Below are positions 5,222 through 27,116 of a stretch of DNA of 64,000 nt, piece by piece; positions within the stretch are counted from its first letter, which is position 1, and every line of letters begins with the position of its first letter. The position numbers and the translations under genes are program-made. This DNA is from Schmidtea polychroa (Eukaryota): assembly GCA_044892525.1 (NCBI GenBank), contig CM097886.1, forward strand, positions 66,464,001-66,528,000. The letters are read 5' to 3'. The notes beneath the pieces are model-generated. The model saw nothing but the letters and a program-made list of their open reading frames with translations, was not told the DNA's origin and did not search any database.

Positions 5222-5239
5222 TGGGGGCTCAGCCGGGAT
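5222..5239 (+). promoter_or_regulatory. Primer-binding site, tRNA-Pro type
   Basis: TGGGGGCTCAGCCGGGAT matches the complement of the canonical eukaryotic tRNA-Pro 3' end (TGGGGGCTCGTCCGGGAT) at 16/18 positions; it begins 7 nt after the LTR end. Confidence 0.85.
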
Positions 5240-5673: not shown

Positions 5674-6153
5674 ATGTCAGAAGCTAGACAACATCTACAA
5701 CAGCTAAGCCGGTTCGTCGAAATAGAAAATGATTCAATAAAAACATTAAGAGAAAAACTGAAACAAATAGAACTGCTAGAACAACAAAGCCACAACGCAC
5801 CGCTGATATCCAAACAAAACTTTCTAACCGACAGATTAGGATCAACAAATACCGATACCGACTTGTCTATTCATTACCAATGGTTTCAGCAACGTCTCGA
5901 CGACCCCGCTCTGAACATCGAATATGTGAGGATACGCGAACGAGTCAAAACTCTGTCTCAGCGGATACGAACATCAATAGTAGAGAAAGCAGCGGCCTTG
6001 AGAACTTGTAACATTTGCAAGATGCGACCTGTCAAAATTCTGATTCTACCTTGTGGGCACCTTAGCCATTGTGACGAATGCGCCGCCGGTTTAATCCGTT
6101 GTTCTATGTGCACATGTGTAATAAAAGAGAAGCACACCATCTACTTCAGTTAG
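5674..6153 (+). CDS. Coiled-coil + C-terminal IAP-type C3HC4 RING protein (putative E3 ligase, no BIR domain)
   Basis: CNICKMRPVKILILPCGHLSHCDECAAGLIRCSMCTCVIKEKHTIYFS-stop matches the IAP/XIAP-type terminal RING spacing and the ending xxF(Y)S. Confidence 0.85.
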   Translation: MSEARQHLQQLSRFVEIENDSIKTLREKLKQIELLEQQSHNAPLISKQNFLTDRLGSTNTDTDLSIHYQWFQQRLDDPALNIEYVRIRERVKTLSQRIRTSIVEKAAALRTCNICKMRPVKILILPCGHLSHCDECAAGLIRCSMCTCVIKEKHTIYFS

Positions 6154-7175: not shown

Positions 7176-8401
7176 GGCCTAAAGTAATAGTGAGATAGCA
7201 TTCAAGCTACAAGTTGATAACATTTAAATTACTAGTGAGATGGAATATTAAAGCTAGCTAGAAGCAAAGTGAGTTTGAAATATGGTATTTGAATTTAGAA
7301 AGGATTAAACGAGCTCGTGGGAGGTAATAATGAAATTTTTTTTTTTTGTGAGAAAGAGAAACTGAAAAGGAAAATGAATTAAAAAGATAATGAAAATAAA
7401 GAATAAGTGAGAATAAATGATGAGTAAAAGAGGAAGGTGATTAATTAATTAAAAGGGATCCCAGATAAGTAGACAAAGTTCTACAGAATTTTTTGGTTTA
7501 AACCGGTTAAACGAATTTTGTTTTGGTTACAGAGTAGAACCAAATAAGGGGAAACAGAGATGAAAGATTAAGTAAAATAGCGGAACCGCGTAAAAGGATT
7601 AAGAAAATAGGGGAGGTAATAAGCAGTAACTGACAACGACCTATCGATATTATAAATGCTAACTATAGATAATTTATACGACTATATAGATAATTGTTAC
7701 TACCCCAAATAGATAATTTAAAATCGACGAAAAATATGGGTTGATGGGTAATTATATTCCGCGAAGAAGTGTATGAGGGGAAATGAAGAGAAGTATAACA
7801 GAGGCCCTAAAACGGTGTCTGTGCTTGAATGTGGCAAAAAGGAATGATTGATTCGTGTAAGCAAAGGCAACACGATATCATATTTTCATTGTAGACATCA
7901 ATCCAACCAAGTCAATTCAGAACCAGCTCAAGAGGAATCCAGAGAATATACAAACAACCCAGGAAAAGCAATTCAGAACCCGCACAAAGGAAGACAATAT
8001 CAGAACCGAACTCGACCAATTCAGCAGACGCTAACCGTAGAAAATCCACGTGAAAAGACAGGAAAGAGTAAGAAAGAAACACGGATAAACCCAACCTTAG
8101 ATCTTCAAGTAAGCCAGGAGACGTATTATTTTCAGGAGACGAATTAGATCAACTCAAAAGAGGACGATCATTTAGGCAGCAGAGAGGAATATCACAAGGA
8201 GCAAAAAGACCCCACAAAACACCGATATACGATCAAGAAAACCCCACAGCCGGACATACGCCCAGTCGATCAAGAAGTAGAGAAAGTCTATCCGATATAA
8301 CAAACAACCTAACCGGGTCAACGGAAGAATTATCCGTCCATAGTTTAGCTACATCACTAGAAAATTTAAAAGAAATAATAGCATTTCAAGAACCAATCAA
8401 G

Positions 8402-11400
8402 ATGAATGTAGCAAAAACCGACGAATATAAAGAAAAATTTAGAGGCGAACCGTTCAACGGGAATGCGAACAAGTTGGCAACGTTCATAACCAATTTTGAA
8501 GTCTATATCGATGTGTGTGGATGGACATCCGAAGCAATTAGTAAACGAATGCCTCTGTTTTTGTGCGATAGCGCACTCGAAGTGTATCTGGAAGCAAAAG
8601 AAAGAAATACGAAATTAGACAATTGGGAAAACATCAAAACATTTTTGAGAAAAACATTCGGAGCCAGCAAACCGATAAATCAAGCGTTAGGTGAACTGGC
8701 AAGTAGAAAACAAAGAGCAAACGAGTCAATTACGTTATACGCAAGTGAATTACGAAGATTGGCAAAGAAGGCCATGAACGGAAACTTGCCGGAGGAAAAC
8801 CTAATTGGGTACTTCATAGAAGGACTACGCCGAGAAGAGGTAAGGGCCTCGGTGGGATGTCAAATGTGTAAAACACTAGAGGAAGCTATAGATTGGGCCA
8901 CAAGATGCGAACTACACCTCCCGGCACAAATGAATGTCATGCAAGAGGAAGGAAGAATCGCAACAGCAGCGGTGAAAACGGAAAATGGAGATAACAATAA
9001 TCATGAACCAAAGATGAATCAGTTTATACCAGGTGCGCATCAAATTTTCAAACCACCACAAGGACGATCAAACGGGAATAACAGTGAACGCAACAACTCG
9101 AACAATGGGAACAACTTTAATAATCGACGAAATATGAACGATAACAAACAATGCCGAACATGCGGTAAACCAGGACATTGGGATAGAGATTGTTACCGAA
9201 ACGCAAATTGCAATAGGTGTGGACGACGAGGACACACGGAAAATATATGCCAATCGAGAGGATGTTTTAACTGCGGGCAACCAGGTCATATCTCAAGAGA
9301 CTGTCGAGAAAGGAGCCAACAGCAACGACCACCACAGCGAAATAATAACTATGCACCAAATCCGCAACGACAAAGTAATCCTAGTGAGGGAAAGCAAATG
9401 AATGTGATGCAAGAAATTTCACAAATGAAGCAGATGATGCAACAAATGATGAGACCGAGACAAGAGCAAGTACCACAACCAACCCAGAATATACGCATGA
9501 TGAGAAGCACCGAGAATCTTAACAATTATGAAGTGCAACAACATGCACAAGAATGGCAAAGACTACAAGCTGAAGAAGAAAGGATAAAAAGAGAGCGAAT
9601 TCAGCAGCGACAAGAACAACCACTACGAATAAATATGATGAGGATGGTAAAGGAGATAAAGGAGCAATATTGTTACAATTACGGTAAAAATCCAAGAGTT
9701 GTACCTATGAGCGAACCAGAGAAACCGAAAGAAACAATTCCAGCAGCAAAAAAGGAAAATTCAACAACATCGCTAAAAGGAAATCAGAGAATTCAGAAAA
9801 TATTTTGGAAAAAGATAAAAGATAAAATCGAAAGAGAAAATGAGCAAACAAAAACAGAAGCAGAAGCAGAAAATAACGAAAATGGAAAACAGATCAATCA
9901 TCTAAAGCATAATATGATACGAGAATTAGACTCAGAGGAGCTAACGATACTCGAGAACAAAAAGTTAAAGAAGGTACCAAGAATGAGAAATTTACGAATT
10001 AATATGATGAGGACAACAAAGAAGGTGTTGTCAACAGATGACGATGAGGATTATGTGAGTAGCCTTGGTGGAGAAATGTTACAGTTAAATGAAAATATCG
10101 ACCAACTAAGAGAAAAGATCGGAGCAGATGAGGATGAAAGAGAAAGCGACGTGACAAGCGAAAGCGAAGACGAGAATATCGAAATGAAATTGAGAAAAGA
10201 AAGAGAAGAAGCGATAAAACAAGTAAAGGAAATACTTCCAGTGGTAGTAAGAAACCAGGAGTTCATCGACCTTATACCATATAAACGCTTCTTACAAAAG
10301 ATAATGAAACTAGAAAGAAACGAAAAAGATCTAATACCAAACGAGGAAAAAGCGATAATAAAGAAGTATATGGAAAAAATGAAACAAGCGGAGACAACAC
10401 GGTATGTAATAAAAATCGGAACGAGTAAAGGGCTCGAGAGAATATGGATAAAAAGCACAGTCACAGACGACCTTTTCGATTGGATAAGAGAACATTTGGG
10501 CAGCTCGAGAAAGAAAGAGTATTTATATCAATATCAAGGAGAACAAATTAAGCCAGACATGCACCTAATAGATGCATTGATCTGGCCAGGAGAAACTCAA
10601 ATATTGAAATTGTATAAAGAAAGGCAACCAGCAAATATTCATGAATGGGCTAAAGACGCCAAGGCCGAGTATGACTTTAACCTCAAGCTGAAGCTGGACC
10701 AAATAAAACAATGCACCTTGCGACGAAATCTAGATAAATTAATCAAACAAATTCAAGAACAAGTCGAAGATAACTGGGATTTACTCATAGCAAGACGAAC
10801 TCCAGACATGCATGAACTAATGAGCCGATTACGAGATACAGAATTGCTCAGGATGAGCGATTGGAGAACCATAAATTTGATCCACAAATATGGAAGGTTG
10901 AAAGAAACGCAACCGCAGAAATTAGAAATAACCATATGGTTACCAAACGAGGAGAAACGACGAATAAAGATGAGTAATCAGAGTACGGTGGATGACTTAG
11001 TAACCAAGATAAACCAAGAGATAACGGAAAAAGTACGAAGCGAGAGTAGCGACGGGATGATAGATGACGTAGTCATGATGTACGATAAAATAATATTACG
11101 GGCCGAAGACGACACCTCGCTAAGCGAAATGGGAATGTGGGATAATCATCAAATCATCAGAATATTGCCCATGGACGAATTCCGAACAAGAGATATAACA
11201 TACCAGAAAGAAATACGAGACAGGATGAAAACGCTATATCAAAAATCAGTAGAGATAATTGAAATTCATCAACAGTGGCTAAAAGAAAAAGAGCTTCAAG
11301 GAAAAATAAAGAAACTAAGTGTTAGATCCTGCAGACGAACCCCATGGGAAAGGACGTGGAATGCGGAAAACAAAGAATGGGAAATCAGGAAAGGGATTTT

Positions 11401-12007
11401 CGTGGAAACAGACATTGGTGAGATAGAAAGCGAATCAGAAGAAGAGGAAGATGAACCTCCAAAATACGAAGAGGACGAAATAGAATCGACATCGGACGAC
11501 GAAAGCGAAACGGATGTTACATCAGAAAGTGAAACGGAAACCAGACATATTCATGCGATGAGAAAGAAAGAACGCGAATATGCCGATATGGACAGCGAAG
11601 AAGCGATGGAAGCTCGAGAACGAGAAGAGAAGGAAAGATATAAACAATTAGGTGATATCTTAGCAACGGGAACAAAAAATCAAAAACGTCAAGTAATAGC
11701 ATTGGCTAACATCATCCTAAAGACATCAGAGAATATCCACAATCTAAGAGAAATGGCGAAAGCGATTGAGGAATACAGACAATATAACGAATGGTACCCA
11801 GAACAGCTAGAACAAATTATTAGGAAATGGAGAAACCAAGAATGGGCACAAGATACCCAGGAAAGGTATCGTATCCGAGTCAAGTATCCCGACAAAAGCA
11901 TTGAGGATACAGAAGTACATCCAACAACAAAGATCAGAGAGTTAAAAAAAGAAATTAGCATACGAAACTCCATTTCACCTACAACTATTCGGAAAATCGT
12001 TGGATGA
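8402..12007 (+). CDS. gag: Gag (Ty3-type capsid, three CCHC zinc knuckles) with a long extension containing ubiquitin-like domains; N-terminal part of a probable single polyprotein
   Basis: Capsid motifs (FNGNANKLATFITNFE..., KQRANESITLYASELRRL, YFIEGL); CX2CX4HX4C knuckles at 9152-9304; UBL-like segments at ~10400-10620, ~10919-11170 and 11864 onward. Confidence 0.93.
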   Translation: MNVAKTDEYKEKFRGEPFNGNANKLATFITNFEVYIDVCGWTSEAISKRMPLFLCDSALEVYLEAKERNTKLDNWENIKTFLRKTFGASKPINQALGELASRKQRANESITLYASELRRLAKKAMNGNLPEENLIGYFIEGLRREEVRASVGCQMCKTLEEAIDWATRCELHLPAQMNVMQEEGRIATAAVKTENGDNNNHEPKMNQFIPGAHQIFKPPQGRSNGNNSERNNSNNGNNFNNRRNMNDNKQCRTCGKPGHWDRDCYRNANCNRCGRRGHTENICQSRGCFNCGQPGHISRDCRERSQQQRPPQRNNNYAPNPQRQSNPSEGKQMNVMQEISQMKQMMQQMMRPRQEQVPQPTQNIRMMRSTENLNNYEVQQHAQEWQRLQAEEERIKRERIQQRQEQPLRINMMRMVKEIKEQYCYNYGKNPRVVPMSEPEKPKETIPAAKKENSTTSLKGNQRIQKIFWKKIKDKIERENEQTKTEAEAENNENGKQINHLKHNMIRELDSEELTILENKKLKKVPRMRNLRINMMRTTKKVLSTDDDEDYVSSLGGEMLQLNENIDQLREKIGADEDERESDVTSESEDENIEMKLRKEREEAIKQVKEILPVVVRNQEFIDLIPYKRFLQKIMKLERNEKDLIPNEEKAIIKKYMEKMKQAETTRYVIKIGTSKGLERIWIKSTVTDDLFDWIREHLGSSRKKEYLYQYQGEQIKPDMHLIDALIWPGETQILKLYKERQPANIHEWAKDAKAEYDFNLKLKLDQIKQCTLRRNLDKLIKQIQEQVEDNWDLLIARRTPDMHELMSRLRDTELLRMSDWRTINLIHKYGRLKETQPQKLEITIWLPNEEKRRIKMSNQSTVDDLVTKINQEITEKVRSESSDGMIDDVVMMYDKIILRAEDDTSLSEMGMWDNHQIIRILPMDEFRTRDITYQKEIRDRMKTLYQKSVEIIEIHQQWLKEKELQGKIKKLSVRSCRRTPWERTWNAENKEWEIRKGIFVETDIGEIESESEEEEDEPPKYEEDEIESTSDDESETDVTSESETETRHIHAMRKKEREYADMDSEEAMEAREREEKERYKQLGDILATGTKNQKRQVIALANIILKTSENIHNLREMAKAIEEYRQYNEWYPEQLEQIIRKWRNQEWAQDTQERYRIRVKYPDKSIEDTEVHPTTKIRELKKEISIRNSISPTTIRKIVG

Positions 12008-15000
12008 TAATGCAGATGTCGGAATAACACCCATGAGATTGGGGGAGATCAATGTATTGACAATGGCAGAAACATTGGGAAAACCGATTAAAAGGAAGAG
12101 CAAATCCAGTAAACCTACGAAAGGTAGCTTGAGTACACCAAGCCCTAACAAAGTGGCAAGTAAAACGAATGAAACCGAGGAAATCGAGGAAATTATATTG
12201 GAAGACAGCGATGAAGGAGCTGGAGAAAGATCACCAATTCTGGTAAGATGGCCGACAGGAGCCGAAATATGGACAACAAGCCAACCGTCAACTAGCTATC
12301 AGCAGCCAAATAAGCTGAGTATCGAGGAGATTATCGATAATACAACAGAAACCGAAACCGACGAACAATTCCAACGACAGAAAGGACCAACGAAAGCAAC
12401 ACCAGAAGGTCAAACGGACAAAATAATAGACGAATGGAACGAATGGCTGAGAAACAACGATAGCTCATTGCCAAGAACGGATAACGAGAGAAACCCGAAT
12501 TATGAAAATACAAGGGAAGCCGGAACAATGATGGAAAAACGGGCAAAAGGGAGACCCAAGAAGCAAGGAGAAAAACCGGAATTTAAAACTAGAGAACAAC
12601 TGAAACAAGAACAAGGACAAGTCAGATTAGAGAAACTGGATAAAATAGTGTGGGATCTAAAAGAGGCCCAGCCAACTATCGAAAGAGGCGAAAAATGGAT
12701 ACGAGAGCTAGTAAAAGATATGCTAATAATAACGAACCCACAATTGCGACGGTTATGGCAACGAAAAGTAGCAAGCGTAGACGCCAGACAACTATGGAAT
12801 ACAATATCCGGAATAATTCCGAAATTAATCAAAGAGAAGACAAAAACCACTAAAACCGATTGGGAAGAGACAAGAAGAGTAATTGAACAATTAACTTTAA
12901 ACGCAAACGACGACGAACATCATTTAGTAGTATTAACGTATCTAATGTACAATTTGATGGGATTAGCAGCGAGGAAAATACCTAACAAACAATTCGCAAA
13001 TCATGTAGAAATGACCGTTACAATCATCGAAAATACAATCGAACCACATATTATCCGCGCCGGTGGGTGGAAAAGACTCATACAAGCGCCACGAAAAAAC
13101 GAGCAAGAGAGATCAATGCAAATTCGGTTGAAGAAATTACTAAACAAGCTAGAATGGGAATTGCCATTGAAAGACCCAGCCAGCAGAAAAGCGTCGATTA
13201 ATTCACTAATGATGACCATGATGATATGGATGCTCTGCACCAGTGGAGCCGCGGGATTTACTATTTACGACTGTGACAATTCGATAATAGGAGAAAGATA
13301 CTCCCTGAGAGATATAGAGGAATGTAGACAGGCGTCTCCGAATAAATTAGATATAGTAAAGAAGAAAGTCTCCTATCACGTATACCAAGAATCAGATTTC
13401 ATTAGAACGCAAGCTAGAGAATGCGTAGTATCGAAGAAAGTGTTGGCATATTACTGTGGACAATACTCATATTCAACCCTCATATTACCTGGATTAGATA
13501 AAGAAATAGTACCTATACAACGGGAAGACTGTAAAGAGCTTTTTAGAACCGGAGCGATGAGAATCAGGGATGGAGTAACAATACACGGACAAAGCGGAAT
13601 GATCAAGACAGAAAGTATCTATGTCGCCGGACGAGTAAAATCAACGGATGGATCATGTAACGGAGGCACATATACGATCAGAGGAGAGGTGATATCAGGA
13701 GTAGTAGTAATTGAGTCCTACACAGTGGAGTTGAAGGAATACGAAGCACAATTCGACGCAAACAACTATCAAATGAAAACCAACCCAGCATGCAGAGCTA
13801 CGGAAAACGTGTGTAGAACGGGGATTTCGACTATAATATATGAAGCTAACACCCAAAAATGCCGACTCCAATTGTTAAAAAGTGCTCTATTCAATGAAGT
13901 AAAAGGAGAAATTTACGAAAACGAGGATGACGATGAAGAGAATGGAAACGTAAGGATGCGAAATGGGAAACCAGTTCCGCCATCCCCCAAAGAAAAGAGA
14001 CTCACAACCCAAAAAACACCAACGGCATTAATTACCGATGATCCAGACATCGGCATGAGATTCATTAGAGAAAAAGAGACCACCAAATGTGACAGTATAG
14101 TATACCGGACGAACTACGCAGGTATCTACATGTCAAGGCAAGTAATAGACCGAGCAGTGGGAAAGGTAGCAACGGAGGACGTAAAATTGTACCTGTATGC
14201 CAATAATAAGATGGACTTCTTGTTCCACCGAGGACAAACGACAATGCAAAAAGTGTATTACGATCTTATACAAAATGACTGTTCATTGAATAAAGAGATA
14301 CTAAAAACAAAATTAGCCATCGCAATAACACACCCAGATAACACAATGCCATCACTCCCGTTACCGGATGGACATTTTGGTAGAATGGTGGGAGAGGTAA
14401 TGTATACATATGCATGTACCAAGACATTTGCGCGACTGCCAAGAAAGCCCACAATTCCACCAGGGAAATGCGCAAACGAGTTGGAAATTAGTTACAAAGG
14501 GCGAAACAGATTCGTTCAACCCGTCACTCGAATCATGAACCCAATTGGATTTTATCCGAACACCTTTAACTGTTCAAATGCATACGGACCGTTATATGAA
14601 AAACCCGATGGGAAATGGATAATGTTACCAGTAAAAACCGAAGTACAAGAGCCTAAAAAGTTTGGACTAATAGAACTCGCAACAGAACAAGATTTCAAAC
14701 CAATTGATGTGTCAAAAGCAGGTATGTACTCACCAGAGGATTTAGAAACGGCACGATTAAACGTATTATTCCCAGCAAGACGGGAATCCATTCTATCGAA
14801 TATGGTTACCATAACTGGGGGAACGAATTTCCAGTCAGGCCCCAATTACGAACTATTATTGTCACCTGATCATTTTCAACAAGCCACGTCAAACATGATG
14901 AAAGCAATGTGGGGAAGATTTCTAGTGTTCGGTCAAATGATGGCAGGAATATTGGGAATCATTCTTATTATCCAGATAGTTAGAGTAATATTGACTCAAA

Positions 15001-18000
15001 TGTTAGCGTGTTTTGATATCTATAAGAGAGAAAAGAAGGTAAATTGGAAATTGATAGTAGGCTTTCTACCATTTTTGGCAAAAACAATGGTGTTGCACGG
15101 TCATTCTAAAGACATACATAGAATAAAACGATTGATCAAAATACTGACAAAAATAAAAGGAACTGACGAGGAAGTCGGTAGACGATTTCGGAAAACAATG
15201 TATGATGAAGCAACAAGGACGCAACTGAAAAAGAACAAACCAAAATTCTTAGACAGATTTAGGAATCGATCAAACAGCAGCGATAGTGATGATGACGACA
15301 ACGGGAATGACAAATACCCATATCCAAGTAGAAACCCGAATGAAAAGCCAATAGAAACAGCACCATATTGGGAGAAAGAAAAAACAAATACCTGGATAGC
15401 CAACGGAAGTTATATACCACCAGATATCGTTGGACAACAAACAGCTTTGACCATGACACAAAATATGTATCCACAGTTACCAAGTCAACCAGGGATGAAC
15501 TATATGCCGACCCGAAGAACGAAAAGTGTAGACCAAGCGGACGACGTAAGAACGATAGCAGTGATGAGTTCACCAGGAGGTGCGGCAGTAACAGTCATGA
15601 TCCAAATCAACGGGAAAGAGACAAGCGCCATGATAGATACCGGAGCAAACGTATCAGCAATAGCAATAAACCAAATACCCAGTAAATGTTGGAAAGATAT
15701 CGAACAAACAACTATCCATATTATTGCATGCAGTAAAGAAACCGTCGACGTAGTAGGAAGATGGTGGACTACGTTACGATATCAGGATAACGAAATTGAA
15801 ACGTATCTAGCGGTGATACCCAAACTGAGTGAACCATGTATAATCGGAACGGATTTAATGCCGGAATTGTTTAAGGAAGTAGTAATCGATTTAACAACAA
15901 TGTGTCTAAAAGACAAAATGGGTAGAATATGCAAGATGAACGCAATAATTAGATGTCCGGAGAAAATAATTGTACCCGCAAAATCACAGATGATATGTCA
16001 AATAAAAGTGGATGCAGGAATGGAAGGAGAAGTCATTTTTGAGCCAAGCAAATCATTCGAAAAACGACGAGAATTACCATTAGCAAGAGAAATAATAACA
16101 ATAAATGAAGACGGGGAAATACCAATTAACATCACAAATTTCGAGGAAGAAGACAAGATCATATATGAAAATGAAAGATTGGGTAGATTGACACCCATGA
16201 TAGACATCGAATTACCAAAAATCATCAACGAAACAACGAAAGCTGACGAATTATGGATAATTGACAGCACCTTGCTAACGGAAAAAGAAAAGGAAAGACT
16301 TCAACAATTATTGATAGAATATAAAGATATATTCGCAATTTCGGATTTGGATTTGGGAGCATGCGATGTTACATTACACGCAATACCATTAATAGACGAA
16401 ACTCCAATCGCACTACGTCCATACAAACTAGCAGAGAAGCAAAAAGAGATAGCCGAAGCTGAAGTACAAAAAATGCTAGATGCACAAGTGATCGAACCAA
16501 GTTGTTCGCCATGGCAATTTCCAGTAGTCATGGTGAAGAAAAAAGACGGTACTCAGAGATTCTGTATCGATTATCGGAAATTAAATGCAGTAACAAAAAG
16601 AGACACATACCCGTTACCAGACATCAATGAGATGTTACTTATGTTACAGGGGGCCGCATATTTTACATCTTTAGATCTGAAAAGTGGATATTGGCAGATC
16701 AAAGTCAAGGAGGAAGACAAAGAGAAAACAGCATTCACATTGGGCCGAGATCTATACCAATTCAGGAAAATGCCGTTCGGACTGACCAATGCCCCAGCAT
16801 CATTCCAGAGATGTATGAATTTTGTCACACACGGGATCAAGCAGTGTATGGTATATATTGATGATTTATTAATATATTCAGCAACTTTCGAACAACATTT
16901 GGAAGATATCAGAAACGTGTTCGTTCGATTACGACAATGGAAACTGAAACTTAAACCATCCAAATGTGATTGGGCAAAAGAAAAGGTTACGTTCTTAGGA
17001 CACATAGTGTCAGCAAAAGGCAAAGAACCAGATCCAAGAAACATAGAAAAAATAAAAACATGTCCAGCACCAAAAACTGTCACCCAAGTTCAAGAATTTC
17101 TCGGATTATGCGGATATTATCGAAAATTCATCAAAAACTATGCAGGTATTGCGAAACCAATACAGGAATTAGTGAAAAAGGATATTTCATTTATTTGGAG
17201 TGCAGAACAACAAAAAGCGTTTGAGACATTGCGCGATAAATTAATCGAAGCCCCAATACTAGTACATCCTGATTTCAAGAAACCGTTCTTATTAGCAACA
17301 GATGCAAGTGGATATGCAGCCGGAGCAATATTGGGACAACTCGACGAAGAAGGAAAAGAAAGAGTGATTGGATACTACAGTAGAACGTTTAAAAAGCACG
17401 AGAAAAACTATTCCGTAACCGAGAGAGAAGCGTTAGCAATCATACAAGCAATTAAACATTTTCGATATTTGTTATGGGGACACGAAATATGTATCACCAC
17501 GGATCATCAACCATTAGTATGGCTTGGTCAACACAAAGAAGCTTCAAGTAGATTGATGCGATGGGCAATGCAGTTACAAGAATATTCACCGTTCATAAAA
17601 TTCAAAGCGGGAAGAGCGAATGCCAATGCGGATTGTATGTCCAGATTTATCTTTCCAGATTTAGTAGATCACGAAATGCAACGAATATGTTTGATTGTAG
17701 CAGAAGATTTAGATTTTTGCCAATTACGGAAAGACCAACAAGAGGATACAGAGTTGAAGCAAATCATTGAATATGTGAAAACAGGGAAAGCAGAGGTATA
17801 TGAGAAAGATCAAAAATTGAAGGAGCATATGGATAAACATCGACATCGATATATTATCGAGAAAGATTGGTTATTGATAATGGATGGCGAAAAAAGACTG
17901 ATGTGCATTCCCGAGAATAGACGTAAAGATCTACTAACACAATACCATGACGGAAGACTCGGAGGACATATGTCATCTAAAAAGACGTTGGCACGAATGA

Positions 18001-21000
18001 AACAAAAATATTTTTGGCCTACATTGACCGAGGATGTAACGGAATGGGTGAAAAATTGCATAACTTGCGCAACCAGAAAAAACACGGGAACAAAATGGAA
18101 GGCACCATTAAAGCCAATGCCAGTGCCAGCAGAACCAATGACAATGATATCAATGGACGTAGTCGGTCCACTACCAGAATCAGATAGAGGAAATATATAT
18201 ATATTGGTAATCACAGATTATTTGACAAAATTCCCCGAAGCATTCGCAATGGCAGATCAGAAAGCAAGAACAATCGCAAAAATATTAGTAGAGGAAATAT
18301 GTTGTCGATATGGAACGCCGAAACAAATACTGACGGATCAAGGAACGAATTTCATGAGCGAAATAATGAGCGAAGTCACCAACTACTTCAAGATCGCAAA
18401 ATTAAGAACATCACCGTACCATCCACAAACTAATGGTATGACAGAAAGATTCAATGGAACACTGATTCAAATGTTATCAAATTATGTCGATCGTCATCAA
18501 CGAGACTGGGATGAATATATAAAATTATGTCTAATGGCTTACAGAATGTCGATTCACGCGTCCACAAAGATGAGTCCGTTCAAGTTGATGTACGGCAGAG
18601 AATGCAATATGCCAATGGATTTAGAATATCAGCCACCGATATCACAATACATGGAAATAGACGATTATGTAACCAAGTTCAAGGAAAGAATGCAGGAAAT
18701 CTGGGAAACCGCAGGATTGAATATAAAATTTTATCAAGAAAGTTACAAAGAGTTACATGATAGAAAGAAAAACGTCAAACAGCATACGTTTCAAACAGGC
18801 GATTGGGTGATGATTGAAACACCAGAATTAATTCCAGGAACCACCAAAAAATTACAACGAAACGGTAAAGGGCCGTATGAGATTCTATTCGTTGGAGAAA
18901 CTAATGTAAGAGTACGATTAGTGAACAACCCTTTTACAAGACCAATATACGTAAATGTTGCACGATGTAAGCCAATTCCGAAAACCGCCACCAGTCAGCC
19001 AGAAGGACGTACACTAACGACAAGATCACAAACGTATAGAATAAACATGTTACAGCAAATAAACGAACCAACAGGTAATCGATTAGGGTTACAACCATCA
19101 GAAGCCGAGGAAATCATAAAGGAAGTAAAAGTTAAAATGCCCGGATGGGCAGAAGACAGATTAGATTTTGAGATATTGGGAGGTCTGCTAACAATGATCG
19201 AAAATTATGCAAACCGAGAAAGAACACACCCATTGCTCAGGGTAGTTAAAAGTCAATGGCCTATATTATTCACGATCACAGACCATTACGGAGACACACC
19301 CCTGCACAAGCTTTTAAAGGTGGGTAGTAACGAACAGATATTAGAAACAATTGAAGCATTTCGCGATTGTAACATTTCGACAGATCAAGAAAACAACCAA
19401 GGTTACACTCCACTAATGATAGCAGCCAATCGGGATAAAGCTAAAGATATTATCATCGCATTACTTGAAACTGGGTCAAAGATAACCACACAAGACCACA
19501 ACCAGAAAAATGCACTACATCATGCAATCGAAGGGAAAAGTACGGAAGCCTTCATAATCTTAGTAGATCTATTATCATATGAGGATAATAGAGAGATAGG
19601 AAACATGTATGACGGGCTATTAACTGCAATCAAAGAGAAATTAATAACAATTACTGGAATACTAATTGCATGGAGGAACCCGATCAAAAACGATTATATG
19701 GTAGATATAAACGAAACATTTACCAAAGGAGAAAATACCTTGATGAGAGAAGCGATGAGAGGACATCACCTATTCGAAATTCCAAATCAACTACTACAAC
19801 GTGGCATAAAGTTCTCAAATCACAAAGACGAACAACTAATCAGAAAACGAATTATCAACTTCGAAAAAGCTATATCTCAATTTACCGATAAAGTACAAGT
19901 AAAATTTTGGGAAACCGTGAGTGTATTATATATGATGGAAAATATGAACAACATTCGAGAAACTTACCTAAGCATTATTCAAGTTCTAACGGCAGAGGAA
20001 CGCATTAACAATTCGAACAAGAAAAAGATAAAAAGGAAGAAAGTAAAAGCAAGAGAGTCTGAGGAACAAGTCGATCAACCAATAACCGATATAGCAACAA
20101 CAAGTAAACCAAAGACAATAAACTCCGACCAAGAGATAGTAGTACGTAAGGCTAAAGAAGTATTCTTTGAAGAAATGCAAGATCTATCCGATGAAGCGAT
20201 ACTAGCAAAAATAACCAAAACAGTACACACCTACGCAAGAGATCAGACCACAAATCTAGACATAGGAAAAATAAAAACATTTATACCACTAGCATTCACC
20301 TTACCAACAAAAGACTCAAGAACACCATTACAACAAGCCATTTTAGCAGCAAAAGAAAACAGAGCAATAACCATCATAAGAATCCTTAGAGACTTCGGAG
20401 AAGAATCTAATGCAAAAAATGAACAAGGAGAAACAGCAATGATGTATGCAGCCATAACAAATATACACCCGAAAACATTACATATACTACATCGATCGGG
20501 ATCAAGACTTGACGAAATATCAAACGAAGGAAATTCTGCCATGGATTGGGCAACAATACAACCAAACTTGGAAATGATTAGATTCATTTGTAAAAATGCT
20601 ACAAGAACTGAGGTAGAAAATATCTGTAAAAACACGTCACAGTTCCAATGGAACACGATACGGATGAACTTAGAAGCCATGAAGTTGCTGCTAACATGGA
20701 GAATACCACAAAGCAATAAATATGCAATAAATATAAATGAGTTCTACGAAAACGGAGAAAATGCTATGGTTAAAAATACACTAACAAAAGGAGGAACTCC
20801 GAAAATCATAATGATCGTATTAAACAGGGAAGATCTCAAATTCACGCAGAATCTAAACGAACAAAAGCGAATCGGGAAACATCGTCGGATACAATTAAGA
20901 GAATTAGTGAAAGAATGGAATAGAAAGAGACATGTAGCAACAGGCAGAAAGGAGTTCGAACTCGAAGCAAAATTAGCAAGAAACAGAGTGCTAACGGCAT

Positions 21001-22283
21001 ACCGCAGATTGTTGAATGATATAAATGTCGAGGACGACATTTTAAACGATAGCGGGGGAGATAAAGACGATAAAGACGATAAAGACGACGATAATAATGA
21101 AAAAGGTCGAAACGGGAATAAAGAGAAAGAGAAATCAGAGGAGAATAATCAAGAAAATAACGACGCGAGTAGGAAAAAAGAGGAAAATAACCCGAGAAAC
21201 CGAATGAAGCAAGAAGAAAAGACGAATAGTGGAAAACAGAGGGTATGCCTACTTTTTACCAACAAAGAAATGGAGACAAATATGATGATAATGATACTCG
21301 TACTAACAATGGTGGAAATGATAACAGCCCAGGGAGGAATGAGAACGATAAAAGAAGCCAAAGAAACGGAAAATAAGGACAACAAAGAGGAAGAACTAAA
21401 ACAAGAAAAGAAAAAACAAGTACAAGAGCAGCAATGGGATCTAAAAGAAGAATGGGATTTAAAAGAAAGGTGTATATTAGGAAGATGTATGTCTAGAGCT
21501 TATCAGAGACTAGTGTTAAAAAATGAAGATGCAGAACCAATAACGGAAGTAAGAATACAAGAAGCATACCGAAATCGAGAAGGAAAGAGAATAACGAAAG
21601 TCAAAGGGAAGGAGGTACACCTGGGAAAAGGAGGTGAGGTAGTGATAACGCAACTCCAGCCAAGAAAAGAACACAAAGTCTGCATCGCAAGATTAAGACC
21701 GGGTGAAGACTGTCTACAATATGTAATACAGCAACAACCTCCAAAAGAATACACAATATGCATCTGGAGAAAAGATACAGCGAGAGAATGTCGACGATAC
21801 CCTGGGAAAAGAGGGAAGAAAAGAAAAATCGATGATGAAAAAGATGAGCAAGGAAAACGCAAGAAAAACAGTGAGAAACATCAAGACAATTATGTATCCG
21901 AGGAGGAGATGGAGAAAATACAAAAAATGGCAAAGGAAGGTATGAACGAGGAAATAGCAAGAATACGAGGAATGATGAAAGGAAATGGCAAAGACGGTAA
22001 TCTAAAAAGCACAGAAGCAATATCAACAATAACGAGCAAGGAAAAAGCGGAAATTATAAGCATAAAACAGATGATGTGGATCAGCGGCATAATAATAACA
22101 GGGGCCTTTTTAATCATAACGGGGGGGACAATAAAAATAATCAAAGATAGACGGCATCACGGAGAACTAGAAATGGCCAGAATAAGAAATTTTCAACATC
22201 GTGTAAAACGACCAAGTAATATCAAGCAGGAACAGTGGGTGGAGGCCTGGAATGCTCAGCGCCCTCCAAGCTCACGTATATAG
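11946..22283 (+). CDS. pol: Env-Pol polyprotein (frame open from 11946; ORF track starts at TTG 12000): UBL end, AT-hook, Bcl-2-like, gB-like Env, PR, RT, RNaseH, IN, ankyrin repeats, FN3-like membrane protein
   Basis: Uninterrupted 3,400+ codon frame containing IDTGAN (15636), YIDD (16854), ATDASG...EREALA...TDHQPL, HxxxxxH...CITC, D,D35E ([19 protein letters not shown]) and a GPY motif. Confidence 0.95.
   Translation, partial: [3445 protein letters not shown]
12625..13085 (+). other. Bcl-2-like helical domain within the polyprotein
   Basis: BH2-like [14 protein letters not shown] (GGW at 13062-13070), preceded by a hydrophobic BH1-position helix [12 protein letters not shown] that lacks the NWGR signature. 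Confidence 0.6.
13209..15100 (+). other. env: Envelope glycoprotein of the chuvirus/Jingchuvirales G (herpesvirus gB-like class III fusogen) family, with internal signal peptide and C-terminal TM
   Basis: Signal [22 protein letters not shown], then Cys-rich ectodomain with chuvirus-G-like motifs (YYCG, [59 protein letters not shown]), then [22 protein letters not shown] TM. Confidence 0.85.
15567..15930 (+). other. Retropepsin aspartic protease domain
   Basis: [21 protein letters not shown] ... CIIGTDLM. Confidence 0.93.
16380..17650 (+). other. Reverse transcriptase + RNase H
   Basis: [71 protein letters not shown]. Confidence 0.97.
17690..19020 (+). other. Integrase (HHCC zinc domain, DDE core, GPY/F module)
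   Basis: [10 protein letters not shown]...CITC; [31 protein letters not shown]. Confidence 0.96.
19278..20790 (+). other. Two ankyrin-repeat clusters downstream of integrase (internal duplication)
   Basis: [24 protein letters not shown] (cluster 1); [25 protein letters not shown] (cluster 2). Each cluster is followed by a similar LxxWRxPxxNxYxxxINExxxxGEN motif (19662 and 20685). Confidence 0.85.
21282..22283 (+). other. C-terminal type-I membrane protein module: signal peptide, FN3-like Cys-containing ectodomain, TM, basic tail
   Basis: [17 protein letters not shown] signal; [16 protein letters not shown] and [11 protein letters not shown] resemble the FN3 L-x-P-x-T-x-Y-x-V strand; TM [21 protein letters not shown]. 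Confidence 0.55.
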
Positions 22284-22451: not shown

Positions 22452-22811
22452 ATGGAGCGAATAGGCGAGGAAGTAAACCACAGTACAACAACCGAGGAGA
22501 TGTGGAAACAACAATGTGCAATGTTAACTCAAGTGATTTCGAATTTACAGGAACAAGGACTCGCTGTACAAAGAAGCTTAGTCGAAAGTTTAAATAAAGG
22601 CTTCAATTATGTAAGAATAATCGAAGACCAACGAATGAAAATAGAACAAATGCAGCGAGAGATAGACCGAATATCACGATACAGCCAGGTGCAAGAAGAG
22701 GAGTTAATAAGAATCGCGGAAGAGATGGAGCGAGAGGAGATAGAAGACTGGTCAGAATGGTTAACCAACAGGGAAGAGGGCGGACAAGAGGCCGACTCTT
22801 CCAGCCAATAA
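22452..22811 (+). CDS. Small coiled-coil accessory protein
   Basis: ATG at 22452 in the 22428-22811 frame; heptad, E/Q/R-rich sequence. Confidence 0.65.
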   Translation: MERIGEEVNHSTTTEEMWKQQCAMLTQVISNLQEQGLAVQRSLVESLNKGFNYVRIIEDQRMKIEQMQREIDRISRYSQVQEEELIRIAEEMEREEIEDWSEWLTNREEGGQEADSSSQ

Positions 22812-22900
22812 ATATAACCTAAAATAGCAATGTAAATAAATGTAAATAAAAATACGAAACTGTACCAGTAACGAATATATGTATATATATAATTATAGAA

Positions 22901-24289
22901 ATGGATAAGCGACAACGAGAAGAATTCAGAGAAATTGTTGAACAAATCAGAAAGTCCACCACAATTCGAATACACAACCATGTAACGTGTGGAATATGCA
23001 AGAGCTTATTAAGAGAACCTCACCAAACCAGATGTGGATGCAGAATGTGCAGAGAATGTGTAGAGGAGATAATAAAGAAGGGACCACAATGGTGCCCAGT
23101 ATGCAAAGAAACAATGATAACAAGTTTGGGAGATACAAACGAAGATAAAGCAGCTGTAAAAGATATGTTGAATGCAAACCTAGGATGTAAAAACACCCCA
23201 TGTAATTGGCGAGGAGTGATATGGGAAGTGAGGCAACATATGGAGCAATGTGAGTATAAAATCAGTCAATGCAAACGTTGCCAAGAAGAGATTAAAGTCA
23301 ATGAAGAAGCAGAACATCAAAGTCGATGCGAAGAAAGACTAGAGAAATGCGAGTATTGCGGAGAAAACGACACCTGGAAGAAACTAATCAGTCAACATCA
23401 CAACATACAAGAGGAGAAAGTGTGCGCAGAATTCAGAGGAGAATGCCCCAACAAATGCGATAAACCCGGAGTAATAAAACTCGCTCAACATCTAAAAGAG
23501 TGTGAAAGAAAAAAGATAACGTGTGTGCTAGGAAAATGGGGATGTCCGAAACAATTACACCGAGGGGAATTACCCCAACATCTAGCAGAAAACGTATCAA
23601 CACACGCGGAAATATGGTCAACGGTATTACAGGAAAACGAAAGGAAAACCGAAAACTTAGAAAGAGAAATAGTCTCGCTAAAAGCGTTGGTAAAAGAACT
23701 ATTGGAAGAAAAGGAAGCATTTGAAGAGGCGAGAACAAGTACAAAGATACAGACAGATCTAGTAGAAACTAGCAACATTATGGTGAAAGAACTACATCAA
23801 AAAGTAAGCGAATTAAACCTCAACGAATTAATACCTACGGCTCCGTACATATGGAAAATAACGGGAGTAAAAGAGAAGATGCAGAGAGCGAGAAATGGAA
23901 AGGATACAACATTACTAAGTCCAGCATTCTACTCATGGAAAAACGGGTATAAAATGAAAATGAAAGCATACCCCAATGGGGATGGAAGTGCATACGGAAC
24001 GCATTTCTCAGTATTCTTCTTGATGTGCAAAGGGCCATACGACGAGTTAATAGAATGGCCATTCAAAGCAAAAATAGACCTCGCAATGATGAACTATCAA
24101 AGTATACACGAACAGAGTTTCCATACAGCGGGAAACCTCGTATGTTACCAAAGGCCCTTGGAAGAAGAAGGACCAGCAACTGGAGCACCAAATTTCATCC
24201 TACAGCGGAAAGTAGAAGACATGACGAGAAACGACACTATATACATAAAAATAGCGGTGAGGCGAGATGGGAAGAGTAGGACTGAGTAG
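22901..24289 (+). CDS. traf: Full-length intronless TRAF-family protein (RING, TRAF zinc fingers, coiled coil, MATH)
   Basis: RING CGICKSLLREPHQTRCGCRMCRECV...CPVC; zinc fingers CKNTPCNWRG..HMEQC; MATH YIWKI...SPAFYSWKNGYKMKMKAYPNGDG..YGTHFSVFF.MCKGPYD.LIEWPF. Confidence 0.95.
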   Translation: MDKRQREEFREIVEQIRKSTTIRIHNHVTCGICKSLLREPHQTRCGCRMCRECVEEIIKKGPQWCPVCKETMITSLGDTNEDKAAVKDMLNANLGCKNTPCNWRGVIWEVRQHMEQCEYKISQCKRCQEEIKVNEEAEHQSRCEERLEKCEYCGENDTWKKLISQHHNIQEEKVCAEFRGECPNKCDKPGVIKLAQHLKECERKKITCVLGKWGCPKQLHRGELPQHLAENVSTHAEIWSTVLQENERKTENLEREIVSLKALVKELLEEKEAFEEARTSTKIQTDLVETSNIMVKELHQKVSELNLNELIPTAPYIWKITGVKEKMQRARNGKDTTLLSPAFYSWKNGYKMKMKAYPNGDGSAYGTHFSVFFLMCKGPYDELIEWPFKAKIDLAMMNYQSIHEQSFHTAGNLVCYQRPLEEEGPATGAPNFILQRKVEDMTRNDTIYIKIAVRRDGKSRTE

Positions 24290-24510
24290 TGAGACGAATA
24301 ATTTTGTATATAATAAATTGTAAATATCGGCGTATATATCCAGTAAAATATTATATAGTAGTGTAGAAAAATTCCCCCCAAATCTACCAAAGGTAAACTT
24401 AAGCGAAAAACTCCTAAAACAACTCCTATAACGAATTATAAAAATAAATAAATAATAAACCAGATATAAGCGTACAACGTTAAGTTAATGATATCGTTAT
24501 TTAGACAAAG

Positions 24511-25548
24511 ATGACACAAGAAGGAACTGAAGCCCCAAACCACGAAACCAAAGTCAATAAAATCCATAAGGGAAAATGGGTCAAAGTAATGTTACAATTG
24601 ACGAACCAGACCCACAACCATCTCGAAGAGGCCAGGGAATACGAGAATAACAAATATCAGTGGTTAGTAAACAATTTAAGAGCCGAAGCAGAAGCATGCA
24701 AAAGAGCCTCTAAGTGGGCATCATTGGAAAACACTCGCCAAGAAGCGCACAGCCACTATTTAAAACAGTTAGTGCAGGAAGCACGGAAACGATTGACGGA
24801 CGAAAACACAAAACGAGAAGCAGAAAAACAAAAGGAAGGAAGGAAAATGAATCACCTATTGGCAGAAGCCCGAAACTGGAAGCGGCAGAACAAAGAGATG
24901 AAAAAAGAAATGAAAGAATTGCCTATGAGATTAGAATACGAAAGCGAACAAGGCAAATGGGAGGAAAATCTGGTCATAAGAGAAGAACTGAAACGGCTCA
25001 GAAAGATTGCGGCCCGAAGCCAAACATGGCAGACCAAAGCCATGGAATTTGAAAGACATCTAGCCATGAAAATCTCCATAAGGGAGCACGAGAATGCCGC
25101 AATGGAAGAACTGATACTTCAACAGTCAGGACGACTCGTGGAACTGGTGAATAAGGTCGCAGAACTAGAACGAGATGTCAACGGATACCAAGGAGCTCTG
25201 GAGCAGAGAAATATGGTACTGGCGGGGAAAAACAAAAAGTTAGAAAACGAAAGGAAAATGTATAACGAAAATCTTAAAAATCTGGAGATAGAGATCAAGA
25301 AATGGGAAAACGGCGAAAAAGCGGAAGAGCTAGAAAAACAGATAGAGGTAAGAGACGATGAAACCAGGTATCTAACATACCTGTTGGACGAGGAACTTAA
25401 CGTGTCAAGAGCACTAAGAGACGAAGTGCAAGAACTTAGAGCGCAGATTCCCCGGTACTACATCCCATTTGATCCCATCGCACTCCAATTACAAACGTCA
25501 GTAGAAAGCGATGAGGGATACGTAGGCCAGGAAGAGACCTTTGTATAA
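24511..25548 (+). CDS. Long coiled-coil accessory protein (345 aa)
   Basis: Uninterrupted ATG ORF, E/K/R/L-rich heptads throughout. Confidence 0.8.
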   Translation: MTQEGTEAPNHETKVNKIHKGKWVKVMLQLTNQTHNHLEEAREYENNKYQWLVNNLRAEAEACKRASKWASLENTRQEAHSHYLKQLVQEARKRLTDENTKREAEKQKEGRKMNHLLAEARNWKRQNKEMKKEMKELPMRLEYESEQGKWEENLVIREELKRLRKIAARSQTWQTKAMEFERHLAMKISIREHENAAMEELILQQSGRLVELVNKVAELERDVNGYQGALEQRNMVLAGKNKKLENERKMYNENLKNLEIEIKKWENGEKAEELEKQIEVRDDETRYLTYLLDEELNVSRALRDEVQELRAQIPRYYIPFDPIALQLQTSVESDEGYVGQEETFV

Positions 25549-25722
25549 AGATAAAAGGAAAGATAAAAAATATAAAAATCGGGACCTGTATCCCAACCAA
25601 AAAAATTAATGGTACAATAAAAGTATGAAAGGGACTGTAACCCTGATTATAAAATAACATATAAATGTATAAGTATAAGCCGCACTGTAGCGCAATTATT
25701 AACTATGTATATATTATAGAAA

Positions 25723-26424
25723 ATGAACACTGAAAACGGACAACCCAGCATAACATCTATAATCGAGTTAGAAGAGGGAGAAATTGAAGTTGATGAAGTG
25801 GAGAGGAAGAAAACCATCAAGGAAGAATTACAAGAAGAGAGACAGGAAAACGAAAGATTAGTTGAAAGGTGGAGAGATAATCGAAAAATGATTAAAGTAT
25901 TGAAAAGAGAATATATCCTGTTAGAAGGAGTAAAGAAAGAAGTAGAGGAAGAAAACGAATGGCTTCACGAGCAAAGAAAGCGAGGGAGAAATTGGGAAAA
26001 GATCGCGGAAGAATTATGGCAGGAGAGGGCCAGTCGAAAGGCCGACGAAGTGATTAGTGACTATTGGAAAACCGAGGCACGGAAACACCAAGAAAGCCTG
26101 AAAGGGTTACAACTCCAACTACACCAAAAACAGAAAGAATGTGAGATAATGAGACGAATGAACAACAAATACCAGGAAATAGACAACGAAGGAGACGGGG
26201 AAAGGGAAAATGATTTTCTACAGATAATGAACCATAGAAACCTCGAAAGAGCAACACAAGAAATAAAAGCACTAAAAGAAAAAATAATAACCCTAAGGCA
26301 ACAGTTAGACGAAAGAGACAAACAATTAAAAGTACTACCCGAATTGAGAAAACGAGTAATAAAAGCAGAAATGAGAGTGATGAGAACATCCGAGAAAACC
26401 CGTAAAAAGAAAACCCGGCAATAA
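25723..26424 (+). CDS. Coiled-coil accessory protein (233 aa) with basic C-terminus
   Basis: Uninterrupted ATG ORF, heptad-rich, ends KTRKKKTRQ. Confidence 0.8.
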   Translation: MNTENGQPSITSIIELEEGEIEVDEVERKKTIKEELQEERQENERLVERWRDNRKMIKVLKREYILLEGVKKEVEEENEWLHEQRKRGRNWEKIAEELWQERASRKADEVISDYWKTEARKHQESLKGLQLQLHQKQKECEIMRRMNNKYQEIDNEGDGERENDFLQIMNHRNLERATQEIKALKEKIITLRQQLDERDKQLKVLPELRKRVIKAEMRVMRTSEKTRKKKTRQ

Positions 26425-26479
26425 TTAAAGATGAATGATCAATGTAAATAATTGTAAATAAAAATTTTCGTATAGTAGT

Positions 26480-27116
26480 ATGTGGTTCGGAGCAACCCTG
26501 GTGACAATAATGATGATAGCGATAAACGGAATACCCATATGGCAGCCAATCCCAACATTCTGGGAGAATCCCGAGAAACAGCAAAACCCGTTAACCAAAC
26601 TGAAAAGCGAAAGAAAGCTCTCCAACAACATCCCGAAACAATGCTGGAACAAAGCCGTCTGGCAAAAACTTCAAATGCAACTCCACCTACAAACCCAAAA
26701 AAATCGAACAGCTCGAAATTCTCTTACAAGAACAAACCACCCAACAATCCTTGAAGGAAATCATCATGAAGAAGGAAGTAAAAGAAAGCCAAGTCTTACT
26801 CTATACTACCATCAGTGAAACCCTTATCATCTGCGCACTAGTCATCTGGAAAGCGTATGATATTCATCGAACATGGAGAAGAAACCAGTCACTATCCGAG
26901 AAACACGAAAGAAAGAACCCACGATCGAAAAATAAACATAAACGAGCAGTACATTTTCAACAACCAAACCCACCCGACCAAATGCAACAAAATCTATCTC
27001 CTGACCAAATGCCTGTTACAATCCAGCTCCCCACGATAACAACTTCAACCAGCCATCCGACCCAGAACTCAACCAACCAAGACAGTAATAACATTCCGAA
27101 CCTTGAGATCATGTGA
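26480..27116 (+). CDS. Probable ~211-aa type-I membrane protein split by a +1 shift at A7 (26697-26703)
   Basis: Frame from ATG 26480 gives signal peptide MWFGATLVTIMMIAING. Removing one A joins it to QKIEQLEILLQEQ...TLIICALVIWKAY (TM) and a Q/P/T-rich tail ending at 27116. Confidence 0.6.

Follow-up and report, generated by a model that had tools for sequence, protein, structure and literature searches.

Predicted alternating membrane topology of the Env-Pol polyprotein of a giant gypsy element in Schmidtea polychroa

A gypsy element with Env and Pol in one reading frame

Burro-like gypsy elements of planarians place Env between Gag and Pol. We analysed one such element in Schmidtea polychroa, in a stretch of 64,000 nucleotides (nt) from contig CM097886.1 of assembly GCA_044892525.1 (positions 66,464,001 to 66,528,000 of the forward strand). 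This whole stretch is called the window, and its own coordinates are used throughout. The element is a gypsy long terminal repeat (LTR) element at 973-31586 (30,614 bp), with a 4-bp target duplication, CAGT, at both flanks. Its central open reading frame (ORF) encodes Env and Pol as one polyprotein. The polyprotein probably alternates across the membrane, with the N-terminal part cytosolic, Env luminal, the Env tail, protease (PR), reverse transcriptase (RT), integrase (IN) and ankyrin repeats cytosolic, a second ectodomain luminal and a C-terminal tail cytosolic. Signals and transmembrane segments (TMs) were called from Kyte-Doolittle (KD) hydropathy and conservation in relatives. Insertion scores came from our own rough script rather than a published predictor, and negative values mean readier insertion. 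The features of Gag and of the Env-Pol ORF are as follows.

8072..12007, forward: Gag ORF with capsid domain, zinc knuckles and the first half of a ubiquitin-like domain (Pfam Retrotrans_gag 3e-10, zf-CCHC 5e-12)
11946..22283, forward: Env-Pol polyprotein ORF, 3445 amino acids (aa) stop to stop, a single stop-free frame
12870..13070, forward: weak Bcl-2-like segment, predicted cytosolic (Pfam Bcl-2 E 0.035-0.053, sub-threshold)
13185..13259, forward: predicted internal signal 1 with basic n-region, Met-rich core and A-A-G c-region
13260..14918, forward: Env ectodomain, a class III fusogen of glycoprotein B (gB)/chuvirus type, predicted luminal (Pfam PF24664 3e-72; 14 Cys, 1 sequon)
14919..14993, forward: TM1, the Env TM helix (aa 992-1016; KD 2.5-2.6; rough insertion score -2.1)
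15045..15098, forward: second hydrophobic patch, WKLIVGF (aa 1034-1050, nt 15045-15095), predicted interfacial, a proline-kinked helix pair
15099..15569, forward: Env tail and linker to PR, with YPQL at 15468 and a protease-site-like segment at 15552
15594..18900, forward: PR, RT, RNase H and IN, predicted cytosolic (Pfam RVP 1.5e-7, RVT_1 1e-36, RT_RNaseH 4e-39, Integrase_H2C2 2e-20, rve 3e-12)
19344..20489, forward: ankyrin repeats, predicted cytosolic (Pfam Ank_2 4e-17, Ank_4)
21243..21329, forward: protease-site-like motif (21243), then signal 2 (21282-21329)
21282..21329, forward: predicted signal 2 by hydropathy (aa 3113-3128; rough insertion score +0.2)
21330..22070, forward: candidate second ectodomain (6 Cys, no sequon, 24% K+R), FN3-like by a short motif only
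22071..22139, forward: TM2 (aa 3376-3398; KD 2.08; rough insertion score -1.6)
22140..22283, forward: C-terminal tail with stop codon, short, basic, predicted cytosolic from composition

Pfam orders the domains of the Env-Pol ORF as a weak Bcl-2-like segment, a Monjiviricetes fusion protein, PR, RT, RNase H, IN, ankyrins and a C-terminal region. The preliminary description of this DNA had proposed four hydrophobic segments and a patch in one ORF, and hydropathy and translation place all of them where it had put them. Three 17-aa windows reach a KD of >=1.9, against 0.77 in shuffles, and 15 of 300 shuffles reach three. By itself, the hydropathy pattern is only modestly above chance; the real support lies in its conservation in relatives.

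Relatives, known as proteins, were collected by a search with the Env region (aa 421-1208), which found 1006 proteins at E <=0.001. From these 150 were taken, another search added two long ones, and 121 of the 152 were aligned with the window's Env, giving 122 rows. A word-based search for shorter Env relatives found no match. Env runs on in frame into PR or RT in 13 relatives. Together with the window and four shorter proteins, these 13 Env-Pol-type proteins group in a single Env clade (18 of 121 tips, support 0.995), and the seven Env-Pol relatives that include RT share 45-57% RT identity with the window.

The Env fusogen and the membrane crossings around it

The preliminary description had placed Env in the lumen, and evidence for this comes from the Env ectodomain itself. 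An AlphaFold2 (AF2) monomer model of aa 439-1110 reached a predicted local distance difference test score (pLDDT) of 84.7. Foldseek searches with this model matched a chu-like virus glycoprotein G (E 3.8e-37) and herpes gB (E 1.2e-13, TM-score ~0.35). The window's Env thus has the gB-like class III fold with conserved cysteines that typifies gB-type errantivirus Envs and, by hydropathy and conservation, an ectodomain bounded by a signal (in others a signal or TM) and a TM. TM1 sits in a long helix of the model (536-591 in model numbering) that begins in the membrane-proximal region. Because a disulfide-bonded fusogen must be luminal, the modelled fold puts the Env ectodomain in the lumen and fixes the first half of the topology.

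The hydrophobic stretch of signal 1 (aa 420-438, nt 13203-13259) ends in A-A-G, FTIYDC follows, and a signal-peptidase site is predicted before F439. For signal 1, a row was counted only if the first Cys was aligned and 25 aa lay upstream. A 10-aa core with KD >=2.0 precedes the conserved YDC start in 14 of the 15 relatives with >100 aa upstream, two of the 15 being outside the Env-Pol clade. A core of this strength was also found in 62 of 68 relatives with a short N-terminus, compared to 3% of Pol/ankyrin windows.

The preliminary description had also assigned a Bcl-2 part to the cytosol. Cytosolic placement of this segment fits the topology proposed here, whereas the Bcl-2 match itself is sub-threshold. 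In one relative, P0009, the matching position gives a Bcl-2 E of 0.00096; the window's segment aligns with that of P0009 over 18 aa only and had no PDB match. Signal 1 lies ~45 aa past the Bcl-2-like segment and after cleavage could act as its tail anchor; Bcl-2 proteins carry a tail anchor at that distance on their C-terminal side. The order of a Bcl-2-like segment followed by a signal is seen in P0009 too, and most relatives have no Bcl-2 match.

The preliminary description had asked if the patch after TM1, WKLIVGFLPFL (~15045-15095), spans the membrane. If it formed a second crossing, the Env tail would be luminal and Pol would have to be made some other way. Consistent with a crossing, the patch is kept throughout the Env family, and among 106 stand-alone relatives its score is <=0 in 6 and <=1 in 21, on a scale that is rough. 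In the window, however, the patch scores +2.9 compared to -2.1 for TM1. The 14 Env-Pol-type rows have a median of +3.1 for the patch and -1.2 for TM1, and the patch never falls below TM1 (120 of 122 rows scored). In the AF2 model, the patch consists of short helices of 7 and 10 residues broken at a proline, which is present in 14/14 Env-Pol-type rows and in 8/106 other rows. Its flanks are basic, with 4 K/R in the 20 aa before and 6 in the 20 aa after. A luminal tail would moreover cut RT and IN off from RNA and DNA.

The Env tails argue for the same placement. Late-domain-like motifs (YPxL/LYP, PPxY and P(S/T)AP) are read by cytosolic proteins, and the tails behind the patch are strongly enriched in them. 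With six short-tail rows left out, 57 of the 116 tails carry YPxL/LYP (a mean of 5.5 and a maximum of 14 in shuffles) and 30 carry PPxY/P(S/T)AP (a mean of 4.1 and a maximum of 11). YPxL-like motifs are found 6.6 times per 1000 aa in tails, compared to 0.45 times in ectodomains. Given the proline-kinked patch, its basic flanks and the excess of cytosolic motifs in the tails, the patch is most likely not a membrane crossing and would lie at the interface on the cytosolic face. A single crossing after Env and a cytosolic Pol are therefore very probable, as the preliminary description had proposed for PR, RT, IN and the ankyrins, and a second crossing at the patch is very unlikely.

The module after integrase and the placement of Pol

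Five relatives extend past IN. In three of them (P0003, P0007 and P0010), 217-265 aa separate a signal-like segment from a TM, and a basic tail follows the TM. In P0016, a signal-like segment past IN precedes two late hydrophobic segments. The relatives' signal 2 is stronger than the window's (KD over 17 aa, 2.1-2.5), each of their modules has 2-4 sequons (not above expectation), and Ser/Thr-rich stalks occur in the second modules of two of P0003, P0007 and P0010. Residues past TM2 are more basic than those before it in 5/5 modules. The window's second module and those of four relatives cannot be aligned with one another (best pairwise E 0.14); what they have in common is the layout and one motif, LxPxxx(Y/H)x(I/V), present in the window and in three of the four relatives (P0003, P0007 and P0010), a pattern picked after viewing the sequences.

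We take this motif to recall FN3. Neither Pfam nor PDB gave an FN3 match in ectodomain 2, and a pair of searches in Atlas yielded nothing usable or only scores <0.9. A single-sequence AF2 prediction of ectodomain 2 had a pLDDT of 38, and a fold suggested by structural matches to it (best Z 5.7, beta-meanders) was dropped on account of that low pLDDT. A search with aa 2330-3445 among shorter proteins matched only ankyrin proteins. Of the luminal FN3 domain in the preliminary description, then, the layout of signal, ectodomain and TM is kept in three of five relatives, and the FN3 assignment comes down to a short motif.

A different reading of this module keeps the first half of the topology and leaves signal 2 unused, so that the second 'ectodomain' would be cytosolic and TM2 a tail anchor. 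Several features of the window favour it and weigh against a luminal module: ectodomain 2 has no sequon, is 24% K+R and contains a basic run resembling a nuclear localisation signal, it has no fold assignment, and signal 2 has a rough score of +0.2. P0016, with two hydrophobic segments near its C-terminus, and P0004, which ends 357 aa past IN without a second signal, also depart from the expected layout. The whole ORF is K/E/R-rich, however, because the strand is A-rich, which explains part of the basicity of ectodomain 2. The stronger signals, the sequons and stalks of the relatives and the basic residues past TM2 further argue that signal 2 is used. Collectively, these comparisons suggest that the second module is likely luminal and that an unused signal 2 is unlikely.

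The Env fold, the retention of the four segments among relatives and a patch that does not appear to span all support the alternating topology. Given the gag-env-pol order, an odd number of crossings is nearly obligatory; an element with a luminal RT could not copy itself, so that much of the topology follows from the published in-frame env. The polyprotein would thread the endoplasmic reticulum membrane during synthesis, its N-terminal part (Gag, ubiquitin-like, Bcl-2-like) remaining cytosolic. Signal 1 would start translocation of the gB-type Env and TM1 would halt it, with the kinked patch on the cytosolic face and the Env tail, PR, RT, RNase H, IN and ankyrins in the cytosol. Signal 2 would restart translocation for a second type I surface protein, anchored by TM2. 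Cleavage by host signal peptidase after both signals would leave three membrane-held pieces, namely the N-terminal part on the signal 1 remnant, an Env-Pol-ankyrin chain anchored at its two ends, and the second glycoprotein. Cleavage of the cytosolic linkers by the element's own protease would follow. As an overall explanation, mechanism included, we consider this membrane-threaded polyprotein fairly probable. The topology predicts cleavage by signal peptidase at two sites, a late-domain-like motif in an Env tail that faces the cytosol, protease sites next to each anchor and a second surface protein common to distant relatives.

Several observations weigh against this topology. The ectodomains do contain the cysteines that the preliminary description had pointed to (14 in 553 aa and 6 in 246 aa, with none in the flanking linkers), but their density of 2.4-2.5 per 100 aa is matched by 2.3 in PR-RT-IN, so that Cys content alone is no proof of a luminal site. 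Sequons fail to separate ectodomain (383 vs 400 expected) from tail (85 vs 69 expected). Looser hydropathy thresholds are not significant (52/300 and 222/300 shuffles), and signal 1 falls below the KD 1.9 threshold and is among the weakest in the family (KD over 10 aa 2.0 vs a median of 2.9). In P0020, two hydrophobic segments precede Env. The Env-Pol-type rows all fall in one clade, and hence represent one origin rather than independent cases.

Gag, which the preliminary description had included in the same polyprotein, is in this copy in another frame (8072-12007) than the Env-Pol ORF, which also counts against a single chain. The frame change falls in 11946-12007, inside the ubiquitin-like domain, despite near-identical LTRs. 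The Gag ORF's 3' end covers positions 1-40 of 72 of the ubiquitin profile (E 0.0075, below cut-off), and a PDB search with the first part of the Env-Pol ORF, where the remainder of this domain might lie, gave no match. Of the 16 relatives examined, 7 have Gag knuckles upstream of Env in one and the same ORF, so that for the single copy seen a lesion or an assembly error is probably a better explanation than a programmed shift. The Gag ORF has a PPxY-like motif, PPKY, at 11456 and by hydropathy no TM-like window. It may hold more than one ubiquitin-fold domain, with weak matches to PI3K_rbd (E 0.027, 10910-11230) and ubiquitin (E 0.0075, 11849-12004).

If the ORF, which runs from Env to Pol, is translated whole, Pol would be tethered to the Env tail at synthesis. 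The tether may persist until Gag, Env and Pol have come together at one membrane, with Pol being loaded into particles whose budding the YPxL/PPxY-like motifs would assist. We offer this as a tentative hypothesis, somewhat short of an even chance; a point against it is that a packaging role depends on when the protease acts, and timing is beyond the reach of sequence. Domain borders repeatedly carry a motif that resembles gypsy protease sites, and one copy stands immediately ahead of signal 2. In the window this motif occurs 17 times in predicted cytosolic regions (7.2 expected) and not at all in luminal ones (1.3 expected); in 13 relatives the counts are 49 (36.8 expected) and 5 (18.7 expected). 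The motif was defined on the window itself and the relatives' rows are kin, which limits these counts to a supporting role.

The same topology may instead come with a transient tether and no packaging role, Pol being freed early and entering particles via Gag or RNA contacts, and the layout reflecting in-frame env capture. The protease-site-like motif just before PR (15552) is consistent with this, as are the aspartic-protease motifs, of which two to three per chain are beyond doubt in at least 6 of 16 relatives examined and which could allow within-chain cleavage. P0003, P0004, P0006 and P0007 have three such motifs and P0005, P0008 and P0019 two, often adjoining membrane anchors (after the Env tail; before signal 2), and the extra motifs in several relatives might lead to early Pol release. 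In P0003, P0004 and P0007, they lie after the Env tail, before RT and after IN. The window, by contrast, has one protease motif only; retroviral-type proteases need dimerization, and clustering of precursors would favour activation. The fusion is also retained in relatives at 45-57% RT identity. A further point for a transient tether is that the GAG-ENV-POL order occurs in several separate clades (PMC13524379). Early release of Pol is a serious possibility, if a little below even, and the finding would then be a sound annotation of a known family.

Pol could also be made mainly from a spliced RNA that skips env, with the tethered precursor minor, as foamy viruses express Pol separately (PMC3196705). 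T/A-rich acceptor-like AG sites lie a few bases before accessory-ORF ATGs (5638, 22345, 22898, 24504 and 25719), so that the element probably splices, and these sites suggest that it makes a set of spliced subgenomic RNAs. Donor-like sites are present in the 5' LTR (1754 and 4953). An acceptor-like site at 14975, in TM1 codons, is in phase with a donor-like site at 12243, and an in-frame ATG follows it 24 nt downstream; 2.9% of synonymous shuffles produce a phase-0 site in 14900-15600. However, the ORF has three acceptor-like sites compared to 1.7 expected (P 0.24), another of the three falls in RT active-site codons, and any site in 14900-15600 is found in 23% of shuffles. The Gln and Met involved at 14975 are not conserved in relatives, and the frame is unbroken through TM and tail in 13 relatives. 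The 14975 site is not clearly above chance and is a lead rather than evidence, and production of Pol mainly by skipping env is quite improbable.

A broader reading of the membrane-threaded chain is a two-glycoprotein enveloped particle. Gag would sit on a leftover signal peptide rather than a matrix domain, Pol would be clamped between a class III fusogen tail and the signal of an FN3-like attachment protein, the Env tail would supply the late domain, and Env clustering would activate the protease and free the enzymes in the budding particle. This is rather unlikely; if true, it would mean retroelement assembly with flavivirus-like processing, in which Gag, Env, Pol and a receptor-binding partner are made at a fixed 1:1:1:1 ratio.

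The rest of the element and known systems

Outside Gag and the Env-Pol ORF, the element carries the following features.

973..5214, forward: 5' LTR, TG...CA, 4242 bp, 99.9% identity with the 3' LTR (1 mismatch, 1 gap)
5222..5239, forward: putative primer-binding site, starting 7 nt past the 5' LTR
5674..6153, forward: accessory ORF with a C-terminal RING finger and no BIR match (Pfam zf-C3HC4_3 5.9e-8)
22452..27116, forward: downstream accessory region, most ORFs preceded by acceptor-like AG sites
22452 (start), forward: 119-aa ORF from the ORF scan
22901-24289, forward: TRAF-like protein with RING, zinc fingers and MATH (Pfam MATH_2 2.6e-25), intronless and complete-looking
24511 and 25724 (starts), forward: two charged ORFs, from translation
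26480-26818, forward: signal-like ORF of 112 aa, preceded by an acceptor-like AG
26604-27116, forward: TM-bearing ORF overlapping 26480-26818 in another frame, with TM at 26793-26849 and a basic tail
27348..31586, forward: 3' LTR, 4239 bp

The insertion is recent and the element young, since the LTRs are 99.9% identical, start with TG and end with CA, and are flanked by the CAGT duplication. The putative primer-binding site may be of tRNA-Pro type; the 64-kb window contains no tRNA gene. Each LTR holds a 253-aa ORF (3906-4667 and 30281-31042) without a Pfam match, and a tandem array of ~80-bp units lies between the RING ORF and Gag (6737-7174). The region 26480-27116 may encode a third type I membrane protein, split across two frames in this copy. 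The flanks of the element are ~27% GC. On the host side, an ORF at 47455-48618 matches flavin amine oxidoreductase in Pfam (5e-25), ORFs at 33937, 36655 and 37716 have no Pfam match, and two arrays (55841-56134 and 60852-61512) share a related 21-bp AT-rich tandem repeat. Runs of N are at 36336-36492 and 49645-49796.

By the published description of its layout, and not by identity to Burro1-4, the element is a Burro-like giant gypsy. It exceeds 30 kb and has long LTRs, its Gag has three CCHC knuckles, the order PR-RT-RH-IN is found by Pfam, and env lies in frame directly before pol, Env to IN being one ORF. The cargo comprises ankyrin, MATH and RING domains (Pfam, E values as listed). BIR and dUTPase domains had no Pfam match in the 12 longer ORFs scanned. 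Burro/GYPSM1 elements of planarians are described as LTR elements of >30 kb with env in frame before PR, related to mononegavirus glycoproteins, and they share with the window the Gag CCHC knuckles, PR-RT-RH-IN, ankyrins and MATH/TRAF and RING cargo (PMC6431247). Their ubiquitin/SUMO-like and BCL2-like segments have candidate counterparts in the window, where both matches are below cut-off. MATH/TRAF is a downstream accessory ORF in the window, inside the polyprotein in S. mediterranea Burro1 and upstream in D. tigrina (PMC6431247). The window further differs from Burro in lacking a BIR match and in having Gag out of frame in this copy.

The element family and the in-frame env between gag and pol, published in 2019, are thus already known. 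The available portion of the Burro account is silent on signals, TMs, topology and any C-terminal membrane protein (PMC6431247), and the literature searched gave no account of the membrane topology of such polyproteins, although some key Burro1/planarian papers outside our reach may describe signals or TMs. The second glycoprotein conserved after IN, the predicted anchoring of Pol at its two ends and the presence of a late-domain-like motif in the tail of Env look undescribed in that literature; what our analysis adds is the resolution of the patch, the late-domain-like tail and the conserved second membrane protein. In planarians, Burro1 is both plentiful and active (PMC8532177), and it reportedly supports the survival of stem cells (as cited in PMC13465017); enveloped particles or surface proteins from such elements would bear on planarian biology and on the origin of retrovirus-like infectivity.

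GAG-ENV-POL errantiviruses of flatworms, nematodes and bryozoans likewise carry an Env of gB type between gag and pol, with a signal or TM at one boundary and a TM at the other, and the supplement of that study includes two S. mediterranea elements of ~14.8 kb (PMC13524379). Its main text, as available, does not mention 'polyprotein', 'in-frame', 'fused' or 'splic' and describes no second glycoprotein or cargo domains. Herpes gB is single-pass with membrane-binding cytoplasmic helices (PMC4690880). Chuvirus/Monjiviricetes glycoproteins and gB share with the window's Env the fold, cysteine pattern, membrane-proximal helix, single TM and membrane-binding tail helices, but they stand alone, with an N-terminal signal and a free C-terminus, whereas the window's Env is fused at both ends to retroelement proteins. 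In retroviruses and in most gypsy elements that carry env, Env is translated from an RNA of its own and Pol is packaged while fused to Gag (PMC10309623, PMC6431247). Foamy viruses and Cer1 of C. elegans resemble the window in unconventional Pol production or packaging. Foamy Pol is a separate precursor, unlike that of the window (PMC3196705). Cer1 has one long ORF and a spliced product (PMC10309623); its extra ORF lies after pol and does not encode an envelope protein, again unlike the window.

The preliminary description had likened the alternating topology to that of a flavivirus or alphavirus polyprotein. The layout is probable from the Env fold and the conserved segments, and the likeness would be one of processing logic, without homology. 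In flavivirus and alphavirus polyproteins, signal peptidase cuts on the luminal side and the viral protease on the cytosolic side. In hepatitis C virus core-E1, a capsid part is followed by an internal signal and cleaved by host signal peptidase (PMC5402940). Flaviviruses and alphaviruses have a class II fusogen and an RNA-dependent RNA polymerase, whereas the window has a class III Env, RT and IN, and in the window, unlike in those viruses, the enzymes lie between what would be two glycoproteins.

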